From Acutalibacteraceae bacterium (GTDB taxonomy: Bacteria > Bacillota > Clostridia > Oscillospirales > Acutalibacteraceae): a stretch of DNA of 63,385 nt. The DNA is taken from the NCBI GenBank assembly GCA_045660525.1, contig JAZRDY010000205.1:1-63385 (forward strand), in the 5' to 3' direction. The notes beneath the pieces were generated by a model. The model saw only the letters and a program-made list of their open reading frames with translations. It did not search any database and was not told where the DNA came from. Made by a program: the position numbers and the translations under genes. Shown here piece after piece: positions 12,730 to 34,770 of the stretch; the stretch's first letter is position 1, and each line of letters starts with the position of its first letter.

Positions 12730-13926
12730 TTATCTGAGAATATTTTCGTCGATGTTTTCAATGAAAAGTTTTTGTGCAATAGGCTTGTAGTGCAGAAAGT
12801 CAATTGCATATTCTTCTTTCATTGTGTCGGGATTATTTTCGTCGAGCATAAAGTCGGTGTTTATAATTGCATCGGCGTTGCAGGATTTAATCCAATCATT
12901 TACTTCGTCAACGATATCCTGAGCCTCTTGGGTCCAGGTGAAGTCTCTAATTCCCGGTAAGAGTTTGCCGAAGCCTTTGAAGGGTGTAAGGGTGGAGACG
13001 TAGATTTTAATATCGTTGGCGTGAGCCATATCAATCACTTTCTGAAGTCCGTTGATAATATCGTTGGCAGTTGTCATTTCTCCGCCGACAGTCAGGGAGC
13101 GGGGGTGAAGCATATCGTTGATGCCCTCTTTGAAAATAATCTTCTTTACACCGGGGCAGGCGAGTATATCTTTGCCGAATCGGTTGAGCATACTCTCACC
13201 GTAAATATTAGCGAGAAGACCGTGTCCGTCTTCGAGGATGCGGTTGCCGTTGAGTGCCTGTTGCAAAACAGCAACGTTAGTGATACCCATTTTCTGAAGT
13301 CTCTCAGCAAGGTAATAAGGCTTCTCATTTGTCATAGTTGAATCACCTGCGACAACAATGGCGTAGCAATCCTCATCAGCGAGAACATCCACTCGTGTAA
13401 TAAAGGGTGCGGTCTGCAATGTTGCGAAATCTGTCTTGAAAAACAGATGCCACCAGGATGTGTACTTTTCTTTATGGGTGCAGTTGCCTGGGCTGAGATA
13501 AGTGTCACCGCCATAAAGACTTTTGGTACGCATAACGGCACGTTTGACATAAAAGCTCACTGCAATTTTTTTCAGAGCTTCAACTTTGAAGTCGAGAACA
13601 TCGGAAAGTATTTCTTCACCGGGAGCGAGTGTCAGCTCTTTTTTGCCTTTGAAGGTAACATTGACGGGCTTGTCGGTATCAGCTTTGCCGCCGACAAAAT
13701 TTGCCACTGTAGTTTCGGTGATATGAAGCGACTTCTTGTTATATCTGTTTGATATGTTTATGCGTATTTTGTCACCGCTGAGAGTGGGACAGATAACGCT
13801 TCGTGCAGTGGAATAAAAAAGACCGTTATTAAGGTGTATCAGCGGCGGTATGTGAATACCGGCAGATGCAGCACTTGAACTCCACGTGCCGACCCATTTT
13901 GTTTTTGGCGTGTTGTTTTCTTTCAT
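12730..13926 (-). CDS. SGNH/GDSL hydrolase family protein with an N-terminal beta-rich domain
   Basis: VVAGDSTMTN (the GDS block) and a C-terminal DFLHY-type block are present. I prefer the ATG at 13926 with a GGTGA SD. The track's TTG at 13959 remains an alternative. Confidence 0.7.
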   Translation of the reverse strand: MKENNTPKTKWVGTWSSSAASAGIHIPPLIHLNNGLFYSTARSVICPTLSGDKIRINISNRYNKKSLHITETTVANFVGGKADTDKPVNVTFKGKKELTLAPGEEILSDVLDFKVEALKKIAVSFYVKRAVMRTKSLYGGDTYLSPGNCTHKEKYTSWWHLFFKTDFATLQTAPFITRVDVLADEDCYAIVVAGDSTMTNEKPYYLAERLQKMGITNVAVLQQALNGNRILEDGHGLLANIYGESMLNRFGKDILACPGVKKIIFKEGINDMLHPRSLTVGGEMTTANDIINGLQKVIDMAHANDIKIYVSTLTPFKGFGKLLPGIRDFTWTQEAQDIVDEVNDWIKSCNADAIINTDFMLDENNPDTMKEEYAIDFLHYKPIAQKLFIENIDENILR

Positions 13927-16485: not shown

Positions 16486-16514
16486 TTGACATTTAAATAA
16501 AATTTTGTTATCAT
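16486..16514 (+). promoter_or_regulatory. Sigma-A-type promoter for the small peptide gene
   Basis: TTGACA, a 17-nt spacer, then TATCAT. Confidence 0.6.
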
Positions 16515-16544
16515 ATAAATATATTAATAAAAGGAGGTTCCATC

Positions 16545-16655
16545 ATGGATATCGCTAAGGAAGTACTTGCTAAGATCGAAGAAATCGTTAAGCTTATCAT
16601 CGATTTCATTAAGGGTCTTATCCCTGAGACAGCTCCCGAACAGGACGCTGAATAA
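16545..16655 (+). CDS. 36-aa amphipathic peptide (absent from the ORF track)
   Basis: AAGGAGG lies 7 nt upstream of the ATG. The product is MDIAKEVLAKIEEIVKLIIDFIKGLIPETAPEQDAE. The gene has its own promoter and a strong terminator. Confidence 0.65.
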   Translation: MDIAKEVLAKIEEIVKLIIDFIKGLIPETAPEQDAE

Positions 16656-23914: not shown

Positions 23915-24460
23915 TTATACTGTGGCGAGGATTGTGTCTACATCGGAAATCTCAGCGCCGTAAGTTTCTTTAAGATATTTGATGCCGTGGATATAATCTT
24001 CTTCGGTAAAAGAGTCGGTTGCGTCTTTAGCCACAACGATATCATAGCCATACTGATAAGCATCGGCTGAGGTATGACGTACACACATATGAGCATGAAG
24101 ACCTGTCATAATAACGGTGTTTACACCGAGTTCTTGCAAAAGTAAATGCAGATCAGTCATAAAGAACCCGCTGTAACGACGTTTTGGAACTACATAATCT
24201 TTGTCGCAAAGATCAAGCTCGGGGATAACTTCAGCACCTTTTGTGCCTGCAATAGCATGATCGCCCCAGAATTTCAACTCGTGGTCGATACCTTTGAGAT
24301 GTGCATCATTACAGAAGATAACCGGAATGTTCTTTTCGCGACAGCCTGCAAGAAGCTCCTTTGTTTTGGGTACGATAGCAAGTCCGCGGTCGCATTTGAG
24401 TGCACCTGTTACAAAATCGTTGAGCATATCAACAACTAAAACTGCGTATTTTCTTTCCAT
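23915..24460 (-). CDS. pncA: Isochorismatase-family cysteine hydrolase, probable nicotinamidase
   Basis: VLVVDMLNDF and the catalytic Cys context TGLHAHMCV are present. It lies divergent from niaR. The ATG at 24460 has an AAGGAG SD. Confidence 0.7.
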   Translation of the reverse strand: MERKYAVLVVDMLNDFVTGALKCDRGLAIVPKTKELLAGCREKNIPVIFCNDAHLKGIDHELKFWGDHAIAGTKGAEVIPELDLCDKDYVVPKRRYSGFFMTDLHLLLQELGVNTVIMTGLHAHMCVRHTSADAYQYGYDIVVAKDATDSFTEEDYIHGIKYLKETYGAEISDVDTILATV

Positions 24461-24600
24461 TAAAATCAAACTCCTTAAATGTATATTTATATGTATATAC
24501 ATATTATAGCGAGGAAGTTTGATTTGTCAATAACTTTTTTCTTGTTTTTAAAACATTTTGGTGTTATAATGAACTGAAATAATAAAACGGAGAGATAACA

Positions 24601-25119
24601 ATGAGTGGAGAAAAAAGAAGGATTCTTATAATAGATAAACTTGAAAAATCTCAGATTCCCGTAAGTGCAGGCAGCCTTGCGGAAGAATTTGGTGTTACCA
24701 GACAGATAATAGTTGCAGATATCGCTCTGCTGAGAGCTTCGGGATATGATATACGCGCGGAGCATAAGGGTTATGTGATGGATAAACCGGACTTGTCGTC
24801 ACTGACAAAAAAGATAGCAGTAAAACACAGCAAAGAAAGTGTGACAGATGAGCTGTATGTTATAGTTGATAACGGCGGCAAGGTGCTGGATGTAATAGTA
24901 GAGCACTTGGTATACGGTAAAATATCGGCAGAGCTTAATATATCGTCAAGATATGATGCAGATAAGTTTGTTGATAAGATAAATCAGACGGGTGCAAATC
25001 CGCTGTCACTGCTTACTCACGGCTTTCATATTCACACGGTCGCTGTGGAAGATGAGGAATGTTTCGAAAGAATAAAAGAAAAACTGATAGAGCTTGGCAT
25101 ATTCATTGAAGCTATGTAA
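24601..25119 (+). CDS. niaR: NiaR (YrxA) type transcriptional repressor, HTH plus 3H domain
   Basis: An N-terminal HTH (SAGSLAEEFGVTRQIIVADIALLR) is followed by a 3H-domain pattern with conserved His residues (VEH...THG.HIHTV). Confidence 0.8.
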   Translation: MSGEKRRILIIDKLEKSQIPVSAGSLAEEFGVTRQIIVADIALLRASGYDIRAEHKGYVMDKPDLSSLTKKIAVKHSKESVTDELYVIVDNGGKVLDVIVEHLVYGKISAELNISSRYDADKFVDKINQTGANPLSLLTHGFHIHTVAVEDEECFERIKEKLIELGIFIEAM

Positions 25120-25128
25120 AAATAAAGA

Positions 25129-25154
25129 CAGCACTCCGATTGGGGTGCTGTTTT
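25129..25154 (+). terminator. Intrinsic terminator of niaR
   Basis: CAGCACTCC, loop GATT, GGGGTGCTG, then TTTT. Confidence 0.75.
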
Positions 25155-25198
25155 GGCGCGCTTGAAGGAATTCGAATCCCCGACCTTTCGCTTAGGAG
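25154..25198 (-). pseudogene. Displaced 3' half of the split tRNA-Arg(CCU) (anticodon loop to CCA)
   Basis: The reverse complement reads CTCCTAA-GCGAA-AGGTC-GGGGA-TTCGAAT-TCCTT-CAAGCGC-G-CCA. The acceptor 3' strand is complementary to GCGCTTG at 34868-34874. Confidence 0.85.
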
Positions 25199-25339
25199 AT
25201 ATATAAGCAACACTTTATGTGTTCACTTGTTTTACCCTGTGATACCTCATAAGTCCTTATATAGCAAGGATTTTTAAATGTTTTTCTCCCTTATCATCAT
25301 TTTCAATATTTCTTAGTTTTCAGTAATGTTTTACCATTT

Positions 25340-25358
25340 TGTTTGCAAAATGTTTGCA
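25340..25358 (+). repeat. Two direct copies of TGTTTGCA (putative integrase/Xis arm-type sites, left arm)
   Basis: TGTTTGCA lies at 25340-25347 and 25351-25358. The same octamer recurs three times near the other island end. Confidence 0.6.
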
Positions 25359-25397
25359 AAAATATATTATTACTAAAGTACAAATTTCGATGATTCA

Positions 25398-25433
25398 TAA
25401 AACACAGAGTTCAATTGCGAGCTCTGTGTTTTA
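25398..25433 (-). terminator. Intrinsic terminator downstream of the two-gene cassette
   Basis: AAAACACAGAG pairs with CTCTGTGTTTT, with A and T runs on both sides. Confidence 0.7.
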
Positions 25434-25457
25434 GTAAAAGAGATAACGTAATTATTG

Positions 25458-27800
25458 TTATTTATACTCTTGTAAAATCTCTTCTCTATATTTTTCAATT
25501 TCCATAAGAACATTTTGATATTTAAAAGTTTCTATATCAAGAGTATTATACATTTCACGAATATCATCAAGTTCACTACAGTCGACTTTCTTAATCCTAC
25601 AATAACATCCCTTTGCATATTTGCTCAAAGCCCAAATTGTACCTGTTGGAATATCAAGGGGGTATCTGCCTACTTCTTTATTATCAATTTCTTCTTTCAT
25701 ATGTTGTATGTGGCTATTGATCGATTGCCATTCGCTTGTATATACATTACCCGTATACTCTATTTCTTGATTCATTGCGGTTAGTGTTGCATACATTCTA
25801 ATAGCAAAGCAAATTTCAGAATTGTTTTCTTTGTCGGGATGTTCTGATATCTCTTGCAATAAACTTTCAATATATTTTGAAGGCTCTATATTCAAAATAA
25901 ACAACATACAAATGTCCGCAAAAACCTCCCTAAAAAGCGTGTCAACATCATAACTCTCATCTACAAAACTGTAATTAAAAGAAAGCTTTATATTTTCATC
26001 ATCAATAAAATCAAGATTTGCTATCGCCTCCGGATTAAAATCATCTTGCAAAAAGAGATCTCGTAAAAGATTTTCCATACTGTTAGCTACACAGATTTTA
26101 TCAGTAGTGTTATAAACAATTATTTCACGCATCTCTCTTATTGTAAGGTTTTTTTCATGTCCTAAAAAAGCACGAAATTGTTGTTCAAAATAATTTTTTA
26201 AATTTTTATTGTTAGTACCATATACTCTTTCAATTAAAAGAGCAGCCATTGCCTCCGCATAATATTTTTTTCTTTTTTTTCTATTTCTTAACGATTCACC
26301 TACATAATGTGATATCTCATGACACAGATATCTTAATATTTTCTTAGGATTGTACAGATCACTTTCTGGTATTTGTATGCATACAATGCCCGGAATTTTA
26401 TCTGTAGCGGGAAAAATCTCCTGGGCACTGGCTAATTCACAAGGATGAGGAACTAACATAACTTCAGTATGCAAATATTTTTTATCACTATCACAGTATT
26501 TAAGAATTTTAGAACATTTATTTAAAAACGCAACAATATACTCTAACATAAATACTGGTATGTCATATATAACAGGTCTAATTTCTGGATTATGGGAAAG
26601 TTGTCCCTCAATTCGCATAAGTTGTTCTGAAAAGTAAGAACATTTTTCAACAAATTCATATAGATGTTCACTATGCAACAATTCCTCTTTTTCATGCTTT
26701 TCTATTATATCCTTAATATTTAACAGAAACGCCCTAACCCCAGGAGCAATTAAATATACAACTTCATCCATTATAGGTGTTTTACTCATTCTGACAAGCG
26801 AATGGGCAACTTCAGAAATAGCATGAAACCAACCCAAATCCAAATGTTCAGATTCGATAGAGTTCAAAATATGTTTACACAAACCAGATAATTCAGAACA
26901 AATTTTAGAATTTATCAACTCATTGTCCGGAGAAAAGTCTTGATAATTAGTAGATTCTATATCTATATAAACACCTACTTTTGTAGCAGATTCGGGCTTT
27001 CTATAATTTTTGTATTCATCTGAACACAATAATTTTTTATACAAATTGACCAAACTTGCAGATGCTCTATCTTTATATATAATCATGACATCATCTATAC
27101 CGTTTGTGCAATACTCTTCTCCCGGCGTCAAGCCATCTGATTTCATACATTCTTTAATAAGTTCAATCTGTTGCTTTGTTGTTTCCGTATTGTAACCTGA
27201 AAAACGCATTAAAAAAAATGGAATTATGTCATCGGGATCTGACCACATCGCATCAGAATATATGAGTTTTGAACTAATGCCAAAATATGTATAAGTTTTG
27301 CCGATATTTATACCGCTTATTTCTCGTAACCGCAAAATTTTTTCTATAAGTGTATTCATAGTTTTAGAACGAACATCTAAAACCATGTCACTAAACTCTG
27401 TAGCATAATATAATCTATATGACAAATTGCTTTGTTTTAATTCATTAGAAATTGCTTTTTTTATATCATTGAATTGTGTAGTTAATTTTATTGATGCAGG
27501 AAAATGGATACGAACAATTGCAACAAAGTTATTGCTATAATCGTTTACATATGAATTGGAATCATCTGGAATTAGGTACAGAGGATGATAATACACACTT
27601 TCATCATTGTTCTTAAATATTTTGTCCTTATCTTTTTTTATTTTAGAAAAGAAACCATCACAACTTTCATCAATATCATAAATATACATATCATCAAAAT
27701 GACCTAGAGTAATCCAATGAGTTGATTTAGGCGGTTCCCACTGCTTTTCGTCTGCCGATTTCAGACTTTTTCTCAATAATATTACACTAATTTCCTTCAT
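25458..27800 (-). CDS. 780-aa uncharacterised protein with a zincin HExxH motif (ImmA/IrrE-like core)
   Basis: A GGAGG SD lies 6 nt upstream of the ATG at 27800. HEISH is encoded at 26307-26321, followed 15 residues later by YYAEAMAALLIE. This resembles the HExxH...E-x-AN-x-FA-x-x-LL arrangement of COG2856 peptidases. I saw no P-loop or other motif I recognise. The gene is very AT-rich. Confidence 0.8.
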   Translation of the reverse strand: MKEISVILLRKSLKSADEKQWEPPKSTHWITLGHFDDMYIYDIDESCDGFFSKIKKDKDKIFKNNDESVYYHPLYLIPDDSNSYVNDYSNNFVAIVRIHFPASIKLTTQFNDIKKAISNELKQSNLSYRLYYATEFSDMVLDVRSKTMNTLIEKILRLREISGINIGKTYTYFGISSKLIYSDAMWSDPDDIIPFFLMRFSGYNTETTKQQIELIKECMKSDGLTPGEEYCTNGIDDVMIIYKDRASASLVNLYKKLLCSDEYKNYRKPESATKVGVYIDIESTNYQDFSPDNELINSKICSELSGLCKHILNSIESEHLDLGWFHAISEVAHSLVRMSKTPIMDEVVYLIAPGVRAFLLNIKDIIEKHEKEELLHSEHLYEFVEKCSYFSEQLMRIEGQLSHNPEIRPVIYDIPVFMLEYIVAFLNKCSKILKYCDSDKKYLHTEVMLVPHPCELASAQEIFPATDKIPGIVCIQIPESDLYNPKKILRYLCHEISHYVGESLRNRKKRKKYYAEAMAALLIERVYGTNNKNLKNYFEQQFRAFLGHEKNLTIREMREIIVYNTTDKICVANSMENLLRDLFLQDDFNPEAIANLDFIDDENIKLSFNYSFVDESYDVDTLFREVFADICMLFILNIEPSKYIESLLQEISEHPDKENNSEICFAIRMYATLTAMNQEIEYTGNVYTSEWQSINSHIQHMKEEIDNKEVGRYPLDIPTGTIWALSKYAKGCYCRIKKVDCSELDDIREMYNTLDIETFKYQNVLMEIEKYREEILQEYK

Positions 27801-27803
27801 ATT

Positions 27804-28970
27804 TTAACCTCCATTCTCTTTTAATATCATATTTTTCCCAAACTCAATTGCTTGGTTAATCTTTTCCCTGTTTTTTATATAATCAGGAAACAATGTATCT
27901 ATTATTTCATCAAAAAAACGGGTATATTCTTTTTGGGGTATTTCTTCACGTAAAATAGTTGTTAACTCTATCCTTCCGTCAAAAAAATACACCCACGTTA
28001 ACAAATATATAGTAGTTTTAGCAGAATCAGAAAAAGATTCAAATAAAACTCTATTTTCACTTGAAATAGAATCTAAAGTATATATGATGTTACTAACATC
28101 CCTAAGCAATAATGTAAAATCAACGGTAATATTTACATCTGTTGATTTGCGATTAAAATCAATAATTCTATATGTTATGTAACCGCTAACAATTTGGCAA
28201 ATAATATCTTCGCTTTTTGTTGCTTTTTTTAATCCTTTAAATATACTTTTAAAAATATCTATCTCTCGTTGTCTTGTATTTAAATTTTGGTCTGAAATAT
28301 TGTTTATGTTGAGATTATCCCAAACATGTAAAATCAAATCGAATTTGTTTTCCGTTTTATCATTTTTCAAGCTTTCTATAAATAAATCAGTGAAACATTT
28401 CAAATAGCTCCCATAATATTTAGCACCAACTTCTGGTAGATTTCCAGCCAAATTCAATACATTTATTTCCAAATCTTCAACATCTTTCATTTTTTCTTGC
28501 CAAGTTAGTTTTGCTAACTCCTCGCATTTTTTTGAACTAAGTATAATTTTATAAAAAACAATTCCCTGATACAAAAAACCTAACAATGTTGCTATCAATA
28601 ACAGAATAGAGCTTTCAGAAAGACCTGCCTTTGAAACAGCAATACAAGCTAATGTTGCAAAAAAATGAAACATTGCAAACAGCCCGTATAACGGAAATTG
28701 ACTATTCAAAATTTCCGAATAAGATATTGATAGCATTTTATTATCTATTTTTGCATATATCCAACCTATAAGTATATTAGTCAAACCAATAACCTTTATA
28801 ACTTCATATATTGAACTCGCTTGCAAAAACACAGGGCATCTCATTTTGAATTCTCCACCCAAAACGCTATGTCCTTTAAAGAATTCATAGTATAAAGATA
28901 CCACAACAAATATAGTTATAATAAAAAACAGCCAAAAAAAAGTTTTCTTCGTTTTTTCTTTATTATGCAT
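27804..28970 (-). CDS. 388-aa uncharacterised membrane protein (about 4 N-terminal TM helices plus a soluble C-terminal domain)
   Basis: A GGAGG SD lies upstream. Hydrophobic segments are FFWLFFIITIFVVVSLYY, VIKVIGLTNILIGWIYA, LYGLFAMFHFFATLACIAV and ILLLIATLLGFLYQGIVFYKIIL. The stop codon is 3 nt from the ATG of the next gene. Confidence 0.8.
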   Translation of the reverse strand: MHNKEKTKKTFFWLFFIITIFVVVSLYYEFFKGHSVLGGEFKMRCPVFLQASSIYEVIKVIGLTNILIGWIYAKIDNKMLSISYSEILNSQFPLYGLFAMFHFFATLACIAVSKAGLSESSILLLIATLLGFLYQGIVFYKIILSSKKCEELAKLTWQEKMKDVEDLEINVLNLAGNLPEVGAKYYGSYLKCFTDLFIESLKNDKTENKFDLILHVWDNLNINNISDQNLNTRQREIDIFKSIFKGLKKATKSEDIICQIVSGYITYRIIDFNRKSTDVNITVDFTLLLRDVSNIIYTLDSISSENRVLFESFSDSAKTTIYLLTWVYFFDGRIELTTILREEIPQKEYTRFFDEIIDTLFPDYIKNREKINQAIEFGKNMILKENGG

Positions 28971-29008
28971 AAATTAACCTCCGTTTTTTTATTCATCTGT
29001 GAGGGAAC

Positions 29009-29050
29009 AAAAATTGCCATTACAGTTTATATCCTGTAATGGCAATTTTT
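29009..29050. terminator. Perfect 17-bp hairpin (bidirectional terminator or insulator) upstream of the cassette
   Basis: AAAAATTGCCATTACAG, loop TTTATATC, CTGTAATGGCAATTTTT. Confidence 0.7.
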
Positions 29051-29083
29051 CTGTAAAGGCAACCTCACCAAAATAATCTATTA

Positions 29084-29278
29084 TTAGAGTTTGCCTATCT
29101 CTTTTGCACGCTTCCGATACACTGGACGAGAATAAACTTTCGTAGCTGCATAATAGGTTACAATAGGATTTGTAGTTGAAGAACGCTTGGTATCTAACTC
29201 TTTTTCTCTAATAGATTCCTCTTTTGCTTTGCTGTTAGGAACAGAGTTTCGGGAAAATCCGTAATACGACTTGTTCAA
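29084..29278 (-). CDS. 64-aa protein with a C-terminal excisionase/MerR-like HTH
   Basis: A TTG start has a GAGGTG SD 9 nt upstream. The C-terminal YYAATKVYSRPVYRKRAKEIGKL resembles HTH_17 (Xis-type) helices. This is a weak, memory-based call. Confidence 0.4.
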   Translation of the reverse strand: MNKSYYGFSRNSVPNSKAKEESIREKELDTKRSSTTNPIVTYYAATKVYSRPVYRKRAKEIGKL

Positions 29279-29674
29279 AGGTTAGTTTCACCTCTATTTG
29301 TAGACTCGCTTTACACGGCGATTATATAGCATAATACTTGAGGCCGTATGAAAAGCGGAAATAAATACAGTAGCATTATATGCTAAACATGTTTTTTTGT
29401 CAAGACCTTTTTTGTTTTGAATTATATTCATATTATAACCTGAAAATTCATCTACACTCCTAATTATAATTGCCCAAATATTAGGTATAAAGTGTACGAT
29501 TTTAATAAGCTTGTGTTGATCGTTCTCAAATCCAAATCTATTTTGAATGCCTTTACATAATATATAGTTTCTAAAATTAAAAAAAGTAACACAAAAAATT
29601 ATAAAATTGTAGAATTTGACAAAAAACAGCAAAAAAAGAGTTGGTTATTATCAAATTTAACACATCTAAATCCG

Positions 29675-29705
29675 CACCCACTTAATACGAGTGGGTGTTT
29701 TTTTA
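29675..29705 (+). terminator. Plus-strand intrinsic terminator with no recognisable upstream gene
   Basis: CACCCACT, loop TAATACG, AGTGGGTG, then a T8 run. Confidence 0.6.
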
Positions 29706-29749
29706 TATTATCAGACGTTTGTGAACATTTGATGAATATTTTAATCGAA

Positions 29750-30130
29750 TGGTGTGCATTTGCCCTTTCCTAGTGGGAATAGGTGAAAGGTATTTTTTAA
29801 TCCTTTCGTATGGAGAAAAAGTCTCCAAATGCACCTTGAAAATTAAAGATACATTTCATCAGATACATTACTTGTGTCGGCTTGATGGCCGAGCTGTGCT
29901 TGTAGGTGCGCCATAACCTTTCATATGAAAACGAGCGAAAAAAACTATACAACGAAAGCCGAGTTGCTCTCGGTGGTGGCGATAACAGACACAAGGGATA
30001 ATGATACTTCCGTAAGCGGCTGGCGGAATACCCGGCAGAGGTGAGATTCCTATGGATTCGGCTAGCAACCGAACGTCTGATGATTTCCCATGGTAAGAAT
30101 TGCCGATACAGGGGGGTGTTGAGAACAAAT
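29750..30130 (+). other. ORF-free, GC-enriched, hairpin-rich region (candidate structured RNA or leading-region element)
   Basis: No ORF here has an SD. Local helices include GGTGtGCATTT/AAATGCACC, CCTTTC/GAAAGG, GGAGA/TCTCC, CCGAG/CTCGG and TTCCG/CGGAA. A GTGCGCC string lies at 29906. Confidence 0.35.
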
Positions 30131-30263
30131 ACTGTATTATTAAATTCAAAAAGGTTTAAATCAAAATATGCGAACAAGGAGGTAAAAACAATGTTCAAAA
30201 AAATCACAGGACTTTAGGTAAAGTGAAGTCACCCTCAAAAAATAATACAAGGAGGAAAAACTA

Positions 30264-30353
30264 ATGATTCACGGTTTGCTTGTCTTGCCCGGTCTTTACA
30301 CAGCAGCATTTCTCCATATCATTGCGGCGATTGCAAATTTCATCGGAGGCTAA
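30264..30353 (+). CDS. 29-aa hydrophobic peptide coupled to the ParB-like gene
   Basis: AAGGAGG lies 7 nt upstream of the ATG. The product is MIHGLLVLPGLYTAAFLHIIAAIANFIGG. Its last codons contain the GGAGG SD of the gene starting at 30357. Confidence 0.5.
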   Translation: MIHGLLVLPGLYTAAFLHIIAAIANFIGG

Positions 30354-30356
30354 TGT

Positions 30357-31232
30357 ATGGCAGAGAATGAAATGCTTACTGATGTGCCATTAACACAAAT
30401 CCGTGATTTTCTTCATCATCCCTATCTCGTTAAAGACGATGAAAGTATGGATGAGCTTGTTGAAAGCATCAAGGAAAGAGGCTTGATACAGCCGGTCATC
30501 ATAAGACCTGTTGAAAACGGAATGTTTGAAATGGTGTCAGGGCACAGACGAAAAAGAGCTTTTGAAATTGCTGGGTATGAGAAAATACCCGCAAGAGTAA
30601 AAGAAATGTCAAGAGATGAGGCGATATTATCAATGGTGGACAGTAATCTTCAAAGAGAAACGGTTTTACCCTCGGAAAAAGCAAGAGCGTACAAAATGCG
30701 ACTTGATGCTTTAAGACGCCAAGCAGGAAGACCAACAAAGAATAATTCGGACCCGACGGGACCGAATTTAACAGGCACACGCTCAAATACTGAATTGGCT
30801 GCTGAGGTAAAAGAAAGTGAAACACAGATTAAAAGATATATCCGCTTGAATTATCTTGTACCCGAAATGCTTGACCTTGTTGACGAAGGTAAAGTAGCAA
30901 TGCGACCTGCGGTTGAAATTTCATACTTACCCGAAGAAATACAATATGACCTTTTGGAAGCTATGGAGTACAACGAAGTTACCCCGTCTCACGACCAAAC
31001 CATCCGTATGCGAAAGGCATATCAGGAAGGTAATCTCACAACAGAGGTTGTAGAGGAAATTATGGAAGAGCCTAAACCAAATCAAAAAGAAAAATCACCT
31101 TTCAGAGATAAGCGCATTGAAAGTGCTATCCCGAAAGGTGTACCCAAAGATAAATACTGTGATTTTGTTATCAAGGCTATTGAATTCTATAACCGATATT
31201 TAGAAAGAGTAAAAGAAAACCGTTCAAGGTAA
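30357..31232 (+). CDS. ParB N-terminal domain (ParB/Srx-like) protein of the conjugative element
   Basis: The pattern LIQPVIIRP...VSGHRRKRAFEIAG is a ParB-box. Confidence 0.8.
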   Translation: MAENEMLTDVPLTQIRDFLHHPYLVKDDESMDELVESIKERGLIQPVIIRPVENGMFEMVSGHRRKRAFEIAGYEKIPARVKEMSRDEAILSMVDSNLQRETVLPSEKARAYKMRLDALRRQAGRPTKNNSDPTGPNLTGTRSNTELAAEVKESETQIKRYIRLNYLVPEMLDLVDEGKVAMRPAVEISYLPEEIQYDLLEAMEYNEVTPSHDQTIRMRKAYQEGNLTTEVVEEIMEEPKPNQKEKSPFRDKRIESAIPKGVPKDKYCDFVIKAIEFYNRYLERVKENRSR

Positions 31233-31278
31233 TCTTTTGCTCTTATTTTTATTTCAAAAAAGAAAGGATAATTTTTTT

Positions 31279-31560
31279 ATGAACATCAAAGTAGAAATCA
31301 AGAAAATCTTTAAAGGCGAAAGACCTGTAAAGGCTTTTGCCGATGTTGTGATTGACGGCAGTATGGTCATTCACGGTGTCGCAGTTATCGAAAAGGACGG
31401 CAATAAGCTCGTTTCCATGCCCTACAAGAAATGGAAGACCAGCGAAGGTGAGCTTCGCCGCAGTGACATTGCCCATCCCATCACAACAGAAACCCGTAAA
31501 CAGATTTCCGATGCGGTACTTGCCGCTTATGAAATCGCAACAGATGAAAAATTCAATTAA
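31279..31560 (+). CDS. SpoVG family protein (element-borne paralogue)
   Basis: MNIKVEIKKIFKGERPVKAFADVVIDGSMVIHGVAVIEK...SMPYKKW...DIAHPITTETR matches the SpoVG pattern. I prefer the ATG at 31279. Confidence 0.7.
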   Translation: MNIKVEIKKIFKGERPVKAFADVVIDGSMVIHGVAVIEKDGNKLVSMPYKKWKTSEGELRRSDIAHPITTETRKQISDAVLAAYEIATDEKFN

Positions 31561-31580
31561 ATCTCAGGAGGTATTTATTT

Positions 31581-31847
31581 ATGTTTAAGAAAATCAAGTC
31601 ATTTTTTAAAGGTGTTTCATCAAAGGCAAAGTCAGCCGCAAAGAGTACAGAGGCTGTCATCAAGGCAAAGGTCATCAAGCTCCTCGTCGGCATCCGTGCC
31701 GAGGCTTATGTCGATACAGGTGTAAAAATCCTTATCGCAGTTGTTGTCGGTGCTCTTCTTCTCGGCGGTCTTTACGCTCTGTTCAACACAACGATTATGC
31801 CCACAGTTACACAGAAGATTCAGGAACTGTTTAACTACGCAGGCTAA
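31581..31847 (+). CDS. Small membrane protein, possibly pilin-like
   Basis: 88 aa with a Lys-rich N-terminus and one TM segment (ILIAVVVGALLLGGLYALF). An AGGAGG SD lies upstream, and the gene sits upstream of a prepilin peptidase. Confidence 0.5.
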   Translation: MFKKIKSFFKGVSSKAKSAAKSTEAVIKAKVIKLLVGIRAEAYVDTGVKILIAVVVGALLLGGLYALFNTTIMPTVTQKIQELFNYAG

Positions 31848-31922
31848 CGGTACTTTAAAATTTCAGGCGGAGTAGTTTAAAAGTGGCTGCTCCGCCACTT
31901 TTTTTCAAAGGAATGAAAAACA

Positions 31923-32610
31923 ATGATAAAAACAAGCTTAATTAACCCTATGTATCCTATTCTCCCTTTAGGGAATGTACCAGGTGTTGCTTACTCGGAT
32001 AAAGAAACTTTGTTTAACTTTATTGCTTCTCTTGCATATCTGACACTTATCCATCTGGTGTTGAGATTAGCTGTTAAGAAGGTACCCGAATACAAAAAGG
32101 AAAACAAGAAGGAAATGATAGTATGCCACATCATTACGGCAGGAGTATCTCTTGCTATGCTCCTTATGTTCGGTCTGTCGGATATGCTTATAAAAGGAAC
32201 TGTGTTCTACCTTATTCTTCTTTACTCATCACTTTCAGACAACCACACAAGAACATTGAATGATGCCGCTTCGATTATGGTGGTAATTACTTCGTTTATA
32301 GGTGCAGATGTATCAGATGTTCCCAAAATGGCCTTATCTGCCCTTGTTCTCTTTGGAGTATTTACTCATATTCGCCGTTGCAACAAACGGCGGTTTAGGC
32401 GGTGCTGATATTAAATTAACGGGTGCGTGTGCATTAGTTTTAGGCTTATGGAGCGCAACCTTCGGACTCATAGTTGGTCTGTGTCTTGCTATTGCTCATA
32501 CCCTCATTAAGTACAGAGGTAAAGATAAAAACGACGACCTTGCATTTCCTTTTGTTCCCTATCTTTCAATAGGATATATGGCAGGATTTTTCTTACAAGG
32601 AGGTTTTTAA
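31923..32610 (+). pseudogene. A24 family prepilin peptidase, frameshifted
   Basis: Two overlapping frames (31923-32408 and 32302-32610) together make one peptidase. The first Asp region (SLSDNHTRTLND) is in frame A and the GGADIKL motif is in frame B. The frame switch lies near 32340-32375. Confidence 0.65.
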
Positions 32611-32611
32611 A

Positions 32612-33295
32612 ATGAAAATGAAAAACAGAACCTTAATCGGTATTGTCTGTATCGTTTTGGCTGTTGCGGTGACATTCCTTGTTTCACCTCTTGTCAACAG
32701 AATATCCGAACAGAAAACCGATGTAATCCGCTTCACAAAGGATATTTCACACGGCAGTAAGATTGCTGAAACGGATATTGAAATTGTGAAGCTCTCAAAA
32801 AACAGCGTTCCCGAAAAGGCACTCAAAACAAAGGATGCCGTAGTAGGTAAATATGCAAAGGCTGATTTGTTCAAAGGTGACCTTGCAACAGAAATAAAGA
32901 TTACAGATGATGAAAACTCCGTAGCAAATGTTTTCAGCTCTCTTAACGGAGATAAGGTTGCTATGAGTGTAACCATCAATACCTTTGCGGGCGGTCTTTC
33001 GGGTAAGCTCGAAAACGGTGACATTGTAAGTGTTTATGTAACCGATAAGGAAGGCGAAACGAAGGTCCCGTCAGAGCTTAAATATGTTAAGGTAATCACC
33101 ACTACAACATCAGGCGGTGTTGATGAAACTGAGGTTGTGGAAAATGAGGACGGCAGTTTTGAGCTTCCCTCAACGATTACACTTCTTGTCTCCTCAAAGC
33201 AGGCTATGACCGCTGAGCTTATCTTTAACATGATTGTCCTTGTCGGCACAGTCAAAATGGCTGACCGTGTTGTTAAGGAAATGATGGGACTTTAA
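32612..33295 (+). CDS. CpaB/SAF-domain Flp-pilus-assembly-like protein
   Basis: An N-terminal TM segment is followed by an SAF-like region (VIRFTKDISHGSKIAETDIEIVKL). An AGGAGG SD lies upstream. Confidence 0.6.
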   Translation: MKMKNRTLIGIVCIVLAVAVTFLVSPLVNRISEQKTDVIRFTKDISHGSKIAETDIEIVKLSKNSVPEKALKTKDAVVGKYAKADLFKGDLATEIKITDDENSVANVFSSLNGDKVAMSVTINTFAGGLSGKLENGDIVSVYVTDKEGETKVPSELKYVKVITTTTSGGVDETEVVENEDGSFELPSTITLLVSSKQAMTAELIFNMIVLVGTVKMADRVVKEMMGL

Positions 33296-33316
33296 TGACA
33301 AAGGAGCTGATGCTAT

Positions 33317-33694
33317 TTGGAAGTAAAGATAAACCGTGAAATCGGTGACTATACCGAAAGTGTCTACTTCGGTCTGTCACTTCGTCAATTTATCTTTTCC
33401 ATTCTTGCCTGCGGTGTAGCCGTAGGCTTGTACTTTTTACTCAAACCTTTATTCGGTATAGAAACCTTGAGCTGGGTGTGCATCTTGGGTGCGGCACCCT
33501 TTGCGGCAATAGGCTTTTTCAGTTGGCACGGTATGACAGCAGAAAAGGCTTTCTTTGCTTACCTTCGCTCTGAAATCCTTATGCCGAATGAACTTAAATT
33601 CAAATCAATTAATCTTTATGACGAAATAGAAAGGAGTGATAAGGATGTTCGACTTACTCGGAAAGCTGAAAAGCCTCGTAGGAATAAGCGATAA
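33317..33694 (+). CDS. PrgI/TcpE-like conjugative membrane protein
   Basis: MEVKINREIGDYTESVYFGLSLRQFIFSILACGVAVGLYF is typical of the PrgI family N-terminus. A TTG start has an AAGGAG SD. Confidence 0.6.
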   Translation: MEVKINREIGDYTESVYFGLSLRQFIFSILACGVAVGLYFLLKPLFGIETLSWVCILGAAPFAAIGFFSWHGMTAEKAFFAYLRSEILMPNELKFKSINLYDEIERSDKDVRLTRKAEKPRRNKR

Positions 33695-33911
33695 TTTCGG
33701 TGACGGTATGGCTGTTCCTAAGTCTGTGCAGGATGCAATAGATATAAGAGCAGTTTATCCCGATGGCATTTTTCTTGTCGGTAAAGACAGATATTCAAAG
33801 GTCTTTAAGTTTACCGATATTAACTATGCCGTAGCAAGTAAAGAGGATAAGGAAACAGACTTTTTTAAGTACAGTGATATTCTTAGCACTAATGTTGAAG
33901 AAAAGATATAA
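33645..33911 (+). pseudogene. N-terminal stub (about 80 codons) of a VirB4-like conjugal ATPase
   Basis: KSVQDAIDIRAVYPDGIFLVGKDRYSKVFKFTDINYAVASKEDKE resembles the N-termini of CD1110-type VirB4 ATPases (recalled from memory). The reading frame ends at 33911, where about 700 more codons would be expected. Confidence 0.5.
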
Positions 33912-34398
33912 CGATATTCAAGAACTTATAGACCTTTTTGGGGAAGAATATTATGACTATAATTTGGTGTTTTGTTCGCCCAACGGAAGACCAATGGAAA
34001 GTCAAGTTATAACAAGAGCTTTACAAAAACTTATCAAAGAAAACAATTTACCAAACATCGTTTTTCATAGTCTAAGACATTCAAGCGTCACATATAAGTT
34101 GAAGTTGAACAGTGGTGATATAAAAGCTGTCCAAGGTGATTCAGGACACTCACAAGTTAAAATGATAACGGATATTTATTCTCATATACTCGATGAAGAT
34201 AGAAAGTACAATGCAATCAAATTTGAAAATGCTTTTTATTCTAATCAATCAAACTCTTGCTCGGGAAAAAAGTCAAATGAGGAGAATTCATTATCTTCAA
34301 ATAACTCAACTGAAAATGATGTCGAAGTTCTTTTAGAGTTGATTCAAAACCCAGAAATGAAAGACTTAATAAAAATGTTAGCAAGTTCATTAAAATAA
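33835..34398 (+). pseudogene. C-terminal catalytic fragment of a tyrosine recombinase/integrase
   Basis: FHSLRHSSVTY (the R-H-x-x-R box region) and GHSQVKMITDIYSHI (the H...Y catalytic tail) are present. The frame opens only at 33835. The N-terminal SAM-like/arm-binding part is missing. Confidence 0.75.
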
Positions 34399-34399
34399 G

Positions 34400-34436
34400 A
34401 AGTGGCTGTTTCACGAAAGTGCAACAGCCACTTTTA
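34400..34436 (+). terminator. Intrinsic terminator after the integrase remnant
   Basis: AAGTGGCTGTT pairs with AACAGCCACTT, followed by Ts. Confidence 0.65.
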
Positions 34437-34496
34437 ACTAAAGCAATAATCATAAAATGTTTAAAAAACAACTTAAAAAACTTGATTTTACTATAA

Positions 34497-34567
34497 TGTT
34501 TGCAGTTTGTTTGCAAACGCCCAAAATGCACTCTATTTTCTGCTTTTTTTGCTAACATTTGTTTGCA
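34497..34567 (+). repeat. Three direct copies of TGTTTGCA (putative arm-type sites, right arm)
   Basis: Copies lie at 34497-34504, 34508-34515 and 34560-34567, in the same orientation as the two copies at the left end. Confidence 0.6.
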
Positions 34568-34695
34568 TTACCAAACACTTTTTTACGGAACACCAATCTA
34601 ATAAATTATTAAAACTCTATGTGTGTTGACGCAATGGAAACAAAAAACAAAAGTGCTAAAAAACCGTTGTATTAAAGGCTTTCAAGCACTTAGGT

Positions 34696-34770
34696 TGGCA
34701 CCCTCTACCGGAATCGAACCGATATCTAAGTCTTAGGAGGACCTTATTCTATCCGTTGAACTAAGAGGGC
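34696..34770 (-). tRNA. tRNA-Arg (anticodon CCU), element-borne
   Basis: A manual cloverleaf fits: GCCCTCT-TA-GTTC-AACGGATA-GAAT-A-AGGTC-CTCCTAA-GACTT-AGAT-ATCGG-TTCGATT-CCGGT-AGAGGGT-G-CCA. It contains several G-U pairs. Confidence 0.8.

Follow-up and report, generated by a model that had tools for sequence, protein, structure and literature searches.

Here, we describe a cassette of three genes, S, A and B, on the minus strand of a 63,385-nt stretch of DNA from an Acutalibacteraceae bacterium (GenBank assembly GCA_045660525.1, contig JAZRDY010000205.1); the whole stretch is called the window below. The genes encode a small basic protein (S), a membrane protein (A) and a large protein with an HExxH motif (B), and the unit reaches upstream to about position 29403. 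We suggest, with a probability of roughly 0.4, that the cassette is a membrane-tethered protease checked by S, that is, a toxin-antitoxin or abortive-infection-like module. This reading is favored by the conserved S-A-B order, the A-B fusions, the HExxH...ExxxD pattern of B, its confidently modeled strand and helix of zincin-like arrangement, its recurrent weak zincin matches in Pfam and the promoter-leader-S-terminator-A layout. It is further favored by the conservation of the RNA elements, by the cytosolic, basic and fast-evolving nature of S, by the carriage of the cassette on mobile elements at low G+C, and by ToxN/AbiQ and PDC-S27 genes among its neighbors. No component belongs to any of the curated families searched, and the catalytic motif and the operon logic have precedents in gluzincins, in Lit and in the layout of ToxIN.

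Organization of the Cassette

The initial annotation of the window, made from the sequence alone, described two minus-strand open reading frames (ORFs) of 388 and 780 amino acids (aa), gene A at 27804-28970 and gene B at 25458-27800, and these coordinates were exact. It regarded the two genes as the whole unit. However, a conserved gene S with its own promoter and leader lies upstream of them and makes the unit a three-gene one. The S-A-B order was kept in about 15 distinct loci (related loci that we compared are labeled L001, L036 and so on, and protein identifiers have the form P0058). The length of these ORFs in DNA of 30% G+C, together with about 1300 homologous clusters, makes them genes far beyond chance.

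The translational coupling of A and B that had been proposed was borne out. The TAA stop codon of A (27804-27806) and the ATG of B (27800) are 3 nt apart, and a GGAGG Shine-Dalgarno (SD) sequence for B lies within the last codons of A; a GGAGG also precedes gene A, as had been noted. The two genes are adjacent across loci, with A-B gaps from −4 to 23 nt, and in a clade whose B is about 20% identical to that of the window there is a 4-nt overlap between B and an A-like ORF. In some lineages, they are fused: P0058, P0143 and P0150 (1174-1236 aa), which belong to two different clades of the B superfamily, are A-B fusion proteins, each known from a single metagenome contig, and gene A aligns to the N-terminus of P0058 (E = 5e-14). 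The expectation that the pair is conserved as neighbors was therefore correct. Coupled or fused in this way, A and B are predicted to act together. Downstream of B, a terminator-like stem-loop with a T-run (25398-25433, minus strand), already listed in the initial annotation, marks the end of the operon.

Gene B Encodes a Candidate Zinc Protease

The word-indexed search retrieved 48 full-length relatives of B, and the exhaustive profile search gave 1303 clusters at E ≤ 1e-3, of which 330 reached E ≤ 1e-30 (clusters counted at 50% identity). Nearly all of these clusters are 770-900 aa long and share the same architecture. The putative zinc-binding or catalytic motif HEISH (26307-26321, minus strand), located in the initial annotation, corresponds to residues 494-498 with H494, E495 and H498. 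HExxH was found in 164/164 full-length members, down to 17% identity. Among the same 164 members, G501, R505, R507, R510, E625, A628 and D629 were at least 95% conserved, and so were D138, G234 and D237 in the N-terminal module. E625-V-Y-A-D629 (25914-25928, minus strand) lies on a long helix of the structure model (601-636) and is a candidate third zinc ligand helix; E625xxxD629 was invariant in alignments A1 and A6.

The AlphaFold model of B was confident (predicted local distance difference test, pLDDT, 89; predicted template-modeling score, pTM, 0.89). In this model, residues 1-280 form tandem ferredoxin-like units of repeated beta-alpha-beta-beta-alpha-beta topology, residues 290-435 and 500-780 are helical, and a three-strand sheet (445-478) leads into the HExxH helix (485-496), with a local pLDDT of about 83-93. 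In a Foldseek search, no entry of PDB or BFVD matched the model at E ≤ 1e-3. The N-terminal ~215 residues weakly resemble the tandem ferredoxin-like barrels of chlorite dismutase and coproheme decarboxylase (E ~0.01, template-modeling score ~0.5), a likeness that may serve as a hint of fold class only. In the same module, GHFD (33-36), SD (137-138) and GxDD (234-237), at about 27693-27704, 27387-27392 and 27090-27101 of the window, place conserved Gly/Asp residues at beta-hairpin turns of the ferredoxin-like units, a topology that recalls metal sites of the palm/cyclase type. A palm/cyclase-like reading of the GxDD and SD hairpins found no fold or profile support and was dropped.

The pattern HExxH...ExxxD is the classical ligand pattern of gluzincins such as thermolysin and neprilysin. 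Like the gluzincins of the MA clan (thermolysin M4, neprilysin M13, M48 Ste24/HtpX and M56 BlaR1), B has an HExxH helix after a small beta-sheet and a downstream E-x-x-x-D on another helix. It differs from them in the 127-residue spacing between HExxH and ExxxD, in the lack of a significant profile or fold match, and in a ferredoxin-like N-terminal module of about 280 aa and a helical C-terminal half that match no family. Moreover, its predicted anchor is a separate or fused protein with four transmembrane helices, outside the peptidase domain. We infer that B may be an active zinc protease of the gluzincin type.

At family level, the initial annotation had called both proteins uncharacterized, and this held throughout. 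Neither A nor B gave a significant match in Pfam, NCBIfam, PADLOC or PHROGs, and a profile search of B against PDB sequences gave none either. Neither S, A and B of the window nor 59 divergent members of the B family nor 9 variants of S and A matched PADLOC-DB v2.0.0. Below threshold, the HExxH region matched MPTase-PolyVal in 12/47 members (best E = 0.0034) and Peptidase_M48 in 4/47 (best E = 1e-4), and window B scored 13 bits against MPTase-PolyVal, for which the cut-off is 27.5. No curated peptidase family reached significance for B in Pfam, in the PDB profile search or in Foldseek at E ≤ 1e-3.

A more specific proposal, that YYAEAMAALLIE (residues 512-523) mimics the ExAN-FA-LL core of ImmA/IrrE (COG2856, Peptidase_M78), had to be given up. 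This segment is not among the conserved columns of the 164 members, and neither window B nor 47 members matched Peptidase_M78/DUF955, even at E ≤ 1; thus, the analogy fails. What remains in common is an HExxH protease on mobile elements. However, B is five times larger than ImmA/IrrE, has a membrane partner and has no adjacent helix-turn-helix (HTH) gene for a substrate or partner. HTH genes are only sporadic in the flanks of the cassette.

Gene A Encodes a Predicted Membrane Anchor

Four segments of the A protein are hydrophobic (6-33, 57-75, 92-117 and 119-144), and an all-helical domain comes after them. Hydropathy and the AlphaFold model, which is of moderate confidence (pLDDT 79), agree with the four or so N-terminal transmembrane helices and helical domain that had been read from the sequence. 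The cytoplasmic part is a helical-repeat domain of about 240 aa, and the extracytoplasmic loops are very short and hold no sensor domain. A conserved motif, GWIYAxLD...LGLxYSEIL, characterizes the family, which diverges fast; only about 10 relatives were retrieved.

Foldseek and PDB-sequence searches gave no significant match for A. The nearest folds of the helical repeat in Foldseek were PlcR, 14-3-3 and designed repeats, all of them non-significant. Family and structure searches revealed no transporter, ABC or peptidase-C39 features. Four transmembrane helices and Lys-rich termini predict that both ends of A are cytoplasmic, and B would then be held by A at the inner face of the membrane.

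Gene S Encodes a Small, Basic and Fast-Evolving Protein

Gene S (29084-29278, minus strand; 64 aa) was recognized as an ORF with a motif conserved upstream of A. Its start codon is a TTG located 9 nt after a GAGGTG SD sequence, and it is the sole possible start past an in-frame TAA. The motif [ST][YF]YA[NS]..[IVL]F[SC], usually with a GKL tail, occurs in proteins of 64-75 aa across loci. An S ORF precedes A in nearly all loci with enough upstream sequence (13 clades aligned); S was not found in L033.

The isoelectric point of S is 10.1 in the window and 9.3-10.5 in 9/11 copies. The protein is hydrophilic (grand average of hydropathy −0.4 to −1.2; maximum 15-residue hydropathy < 0.9) and is predicted to be cytosolic, with no hydrophobic segment and no conserved Cys. 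It evolves fast: between the window and L001, the identity is 50% for S, compared with 61% for A and 73% for B. We found no family match for S in Pfam, PADLOC or PDB sequence-profile searches, and family scans revealed no HTH, DNA-binding or anti-sigma signature.

Promoter, Leader RNA and Internal Hairpin

The operon is driven from a consensus sigma-70 promoter (TTGACA-17 nt-TATAAT, 12/12 positions) at 29375-29403 on the minus strand, and in nearly all loci a matching TTGACA/TATAAT pair can be aligned upstream of S. Between this promoter and the ribosome-binding site of S, there is a leader of about 65-80 nt, which in the window occupies 29292-29370 (minus strand) and was identified from a sub-threshold Rfam alignment and from covariance models. 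It consists of stems P1, P2 and P3, a conserved internal loop (YNAAG) and a tail (GCGAGU).

The Rfam model of the L21 leader (RF00559) aligned with the leader of the window over model positions 1-77 of 77 at 28.5 bits (E = 0.012 in a 5.5-kb scan), which is below its gathering score of 36, and the alignment contains 2 non-canonical pairs. The leader of L012 scored 22.4 bits, also below the gathering score, and RF00559 gave no match in L026. The S leader shares with the L21 leader the CCGC, the GG/CC stem, the AAG internal loop, the apical hairpin and GCGAGUCU; it likewise lies directly upstream of the SD sequence and conforms to the consensus secondary structure. The difference, apart from the score, is that it precedes a mobile-element gene, S, and not rplU. 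The L21 leader is itself a putative autoregulatory element whose ligand is only presumed (PMC1913097), and resemblance to it is therefore a lead and not a mechanism. We consider the likeness an intriguing but unproven lead.

The covariance models started from three leaders, those of the window, L001 and L012, and L017 was then added. They recovered the leaders of L017, L010, L026 and L019, with the top match directly upstream of S each time. In the joint alignment, which was fitted to the model and in which one row is a reverse-strand near-palindrome, 96.5% of the cells were paired, and 10/17 pairs had double-sided (compensatory) changes. This covariation, which lends independent support to the structure aligned with RF00559, was reached by 0/500 shuffles, and slid controls paired at 32-46%. 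The covariance model detected no leader in L018, L020, L027, L004, L005, L022, L028 and L033, which indicates that the leader is clade-restricted. When the leaders were aligned with MAFFT, RNAalifold returned the outer stem only, because the variable apical hairpin was mis-registered, and this alignment was replaced by the covariance-model one.

Between S and A, there is an intrinsic-terminator-like hairpin with a T-run (29003-29050, minus strand). Its perfect 17-bp stem at 29009-29050, with the core GCCATTACAG/CTGTAATGGC, had been seen before; its supposed role of bracketing the cassette did not hold, and in every locus a terminator-like hairpin is internal, between S and A. The stem sequence GCCATTACAG/CTGTAATGGC is kept where B is only 32-50% identical, and compensatory changes in the stem occur in L004 and L010. 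Clades that are further removed carry, at the equivalent position, a GC-rich terminator unrelated to this stem. The T-run is only 38 nt away from the start of gene A, so transcription of A-B would have to come from read-through. We propose that the hairpin is an attenuator that sets the ratio of S to A-B.

The comparison with the closest relative, L036, supports constraint on both RNA elements. Nucleotide differences amounted to 10.2% in gene B, 8.6% in gene A and 4.1% in gene S, as against 1 difference in 142 nt of promoter and leader and 1 in 113 nt of the S-A spacer. In a sliding profile, both RNA elements were local minima (0.7%) within flanks of 5-10% divergence, which points to constraint on the elements themselves and not to a mosaic boundary.

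Just upstream of the hairpin, at 29051-29060 (minus strand), lies GCCTTTACAG, a near-copy of the 5' arm of the hairpin, and L001 has the same arrangement, namely two direct half-sites plus one inverted half-site. The near-copy could provide a weaker alternative pairing or a binding site.

Distribution and Genomic Neighborhoods

Among 185,579 species representatives, the cassette was found in 10 loci only, all in metagenome-assembled genomes (MAGs) of Clostridia. Where a source is named, it is a MAG of gut or rumen Clostridia (Oscillospiraceae, Eubacteriales, Fimenecus or Faecousia). A metagenome scan with a narrower alignment gave one locus. B was absent from INPHARED phages and PLSDB plasmids (tblastn) and from IMG/VR (pattern scan); the cassette is thus not phage- or plasmid-borne in those collections.

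The G+C content of the cassette was 3-12 points below that of its flanks in 14/14 loci, in hosts with a G+C content of 35% to 67%. In L004, L010 and L027, the cassette lies inside conjugative elements with a type IV coupling protein, MobL, RepA_N or PcfM, and in L026 and L028-32 it adjoins serine recombinases or insertion sequences. In L005, L012 and L033, it lies in chromosomal islands. These contexts agree with the earlier expectation that homologues are linked to mobile elements or genomic islands. In L033 (7380-17750), the cassette and a few other genes interrupt the conserved rpsP-KH ... rimM-trmD ribosomal operon region.

A ToxN/AbiQ gene directly adjoins the cassette in L004, L010 and L027 have a PDC-S27 candidate defense ATPase near it, and L012 has a PD-T4-6/mad6-like kinase. 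In total, a known or candidate defense gene was present in 3-4 of about 10 distinct neighborhoods, a suggestive count made without a background control. No conserved regulator or target gene adjoins the cassette across the loci, whose contexts are mutually unrelated.

Three further observations concern single neighborhoods. A tadA-like deaminase gene lies at most a few kb upstream of the cassette in L005 (3695-4180) and L033, and such a setting may be a recurrent chromosomal insertion neighborhood. In L012, the cassette is followed after about 4 kb by a Gut-1 RNA (RF01706, 59 bits) at 16490-16567 (minus strand). In L010, a group II intron with a reverse transcriptase-HNH ORF lies immediately downstream of B (13332-13419, minus strand).

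Proposed Function and Alternatives

The initial annotation had seen in genes A and B a candidate defense or abortive-infection module, a plausible but unproven reading. The module that we propose would work as follows. The terminator would leave S far more abundant than A-B, an excess that we attribute to the terminator by reasoning from the layout. S would be a labile inhibitor, or antitoxin, of the A-B complex, or else a decoy substrate; it may restrain the protease or be turned over by it. When the supply of S fails or S is displaced, through phage takeover of host expression or through loss of the element, the freed protease would cleave essential proteins of the host or the invader, and/or A would perturb the membrane. 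The outcome would be growth arrest, that is, abortive infection and/or stabilization of the element (addiction).

Two known systems offer precedents. In ToxIN, a strong promoter, an antitoxin element, an intrinsic terminator and the toxin follow each other, and this order keeps the protective component in excess. The cassette shares with ToxIN (AbiQ), a type III system, an equivalent terminator between a small upstream element and the downstream genes. However, its upstream element is protein S behind a structured leader and not a repeated antitoxin RNA, and downstream, instead of an endoribonuclease gene, it has genes for a membrane protein and for a protein that resembles a protease. Lit of prophage e14 is a membrane-associated HExxH zinc protease encoded by a mobile genetic element, which is activated by Gol, cleaves EF-Tu and causes abortive infection. 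It is a precedent for B as an HExxH abortive-infection effector on a mobile element. However, Lit has no sequence similarity to B (no Pfam match), and it acts as a lone protein of about 300 aa that lacks counterparts of S and A. Literature searches for an already described defense system that combines a zincin and a membrane protein yielded nothing usable.

Several points weigh against a toxin-antitoxin or abortive-infection-like role. The function was deduced from sequence, models and analogy; binding of S to A-B, or its cleavage by A-B, is our proposal, and the candidate zinc site was placed by motif and helix. Searches of PADLOC, PDB and Foldseek gave no significant homology or structural likeness of any component to a toxin, effector or defense protein. 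Defense neighbors in 3-4 of about 10 contexts are not clearly above the usual cargo of mobile elements. The intact cassette within a decayed element fits a benefit to the host, and equally addiction or another use.

A sensor of regulated proteolysis, acting in the manner of BlaR1/MecR1 or of site-1/site-2 proteases, would explain a part of the same evidence. An envelope or membrane cue would be received through A, and S or another regulator would be cleaved, which would switch the expression of host or element genes, with no killing. A membrane-tethered zincin has this architecture, fusions exist, weak matches of the Peptidase_M48 type were seen, the helical-repeat domain of A resembles a peptide-binding scaffold, and the regulation at the RNA level is elaborate. 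However, A has very short extracytoplasmic loops and lacks a sensor domain, S bears no DNA-binding or anti-sigma signature, a conserved neighboring regulator or target is lacking in unrelated contexts, and the distribution is patchy, horizontally transferred and of low G+C. We regard such a sensor as unlikely. Alternatively, S might be a precursor made in excess, as in operons for lantibiotics and other ribosomally synthesized and post-translationally modified peptides (RiPPs), which B would process and A would release as a signal or bacteriocin. The order of a small gene, a leaky terminator and larger genes, the short and strongly conserved core motif of S, and the protease signature of B would suit this idea. 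However, S is hydrophilic and basic with neither a hydrophobic segment of the leader or signal kind nor a conserved Cys, the four transmembrane helices of A come with no transporter features, B is cytoplasmic with no recognizable modification enzyme domain, and the cassette has no immunity or receptor gene. Compared with operons for RiPPs, bacteriocins and secreted signaling peptides in general, the cassette showed none of their hallmarks (a precursor with a leader or signal and with a core that is hydrophobic or rich in Cys, and a dedicated exporter or modification enzyme), and peptide maturation and export seem improbable to us.

The weak zincin matches of B raise another option, namely a protein similar to ArdC that would protect or process incoming DNA or host factors during establishment after conjugation, or counteract defense. 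MPTase-PolyVal, the peptidase domain of ArdC and polyvalent proteins, is the most frequent weak Pfam match of B, over the strand and the HExxH helix, and the mobile setting is common to both. Several loci also adjoin leading-region genes of the ParB, SSB, DUF3846, PcfM or Rad52 type. However, all of these matches are sub-threshold, B is predicted to be membrane-tethered and has no single-stranded DNA-binding domain, the logic of S and the terminator is foreign to ArdC, and the cassette is absent from PLSDB plasmids and also occurs outside conjugative elements, in islands with no conjugation genes (L005, L033 and L012); an ArdC-like role therefore appears to be a long shot. As for a housekeeping protease for the quality control of membrane proteins (HtpX/FtsH-like) that sits on an island by chance, the membrane-associated HExxH protein and its weak M48 similarity are what it can claim. 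This is extremely improbable in view of a presence in only 10 loci among the species representatives, all of them Clostridia MAGs, the always atypical G+C content, the linkage to mobile elements, the fast evolution of A and S, and the lack of real M48 membership.

A protease checked by S is thus the reading that we prefer, and a bolder version of it can be imagined, though we think it improbable. The cassette would then be a mobile conflict module of a new kind. If S is run by a mimic of the L21 leader, the system would read the state of ribosome assembly or translation in the host; shutdown of host expression by a phage would collapse S and unleash a membrane-tethered gluzincin of an undescribed superfamily. 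In that version, the unassigned tandem ferredoxin-like N-terminal module of B may be a sensor or may bind the conserved RNA hairpin of the operon.

If the cassette is a defense or addiction module, it would add to the known conflict systems a large, unannotated and gut-microbiome-specific superfamily of about 1300 clusters at 50% identity. Its effector would be a zinc protease that is tethered to the membrane and carries a novel N-terminal module; precedents for this are few, and Lit is the classic among them. For an uncharacterized system, the regulatory layout is unusually clear, and the promoter, the covarying leader, the small fast-evolving protein and the sequence-conserved attenuator are experimental handles. 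A-B cloned without S and the leader would probably be toxic or uninformative.

Host Element and Other Features of the Window

The G+C content of the cassette is 0.301 and that of the rest of the window is 0.410; the AT-rich block that had been judged by eye is thus confirmed by computation. The cassette forms the very tip of a remnant of about 9.6 kb, whose order is cassette, ParB, SpoVG-like, DUF6133, split prepilin peptidase, CpaB, TcpE-like, C-terminal integrase fragment and tRNA-Arg. The initial annotation had taken it for separately acquired cargo of a decayed integrative element, and our results support this view: the cassette is separately acquired cargo of a decayed conjugative element integrated at tRNA-Arg.

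The decay is evident in several genes. The prepilin-peptidase-like gene is broken into two overlapping ORFs (31923-32408 and 32302-32610). The truncated integrase ORF (33874-34398) matches only positions 87-170 of the 172-position Phage_integrase model, and directly next to it lies a 91-aa fragment (33636-33911). In the remnant, no VirB4, coupling protein or relaxase remains.

The tRNA-Arg(CCT) at 34696-34770 (minus strand), which adjoins the truncated integrase, is the proximal attachment site. A fragment similar to a tRNA 3' end at 25150-25200 (minus strand), a short way past the terminator of gene B, is the probable distal attachment repeat, judging by the equivalent position in L001, and the element would then span about 25150-34770. 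L001 and L003 have about 82% nucleotide identity to the window from DUF6133 through B, and in both a 45-nt copy of the tRNA-Arg 3' end lies downstream of B (L001 7025-7069). Within the window, the fragment at 25150-25200 was not clearly a direct duplicate of the tRNA-Arg.

A pemK RNA motif (RF02913) was matched strongly at 29998-30055 on the plus strand, scoring 70.7 bits where the gathering score is 34.8. The motif is located in a non-coding stretch of about 1 kb between the S promoter and the divergent ParB gene (30357), about 300 nt upstream of ParB; the literature on the pemK RNA offered nothing usable. ParB, a partition or KorB-like protein, contains a locally hypervariable patch (30600-30900) that is 14-23% divergent from L036, compared with 1-5% elsewhere. 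On the left chromosomal flank (23915-25119), ordinary host genes for an isochorismatase/nicotinamidase-like protein and a NiaR-type (HTH_11 + 3H) regulator mark the host side of the junction.

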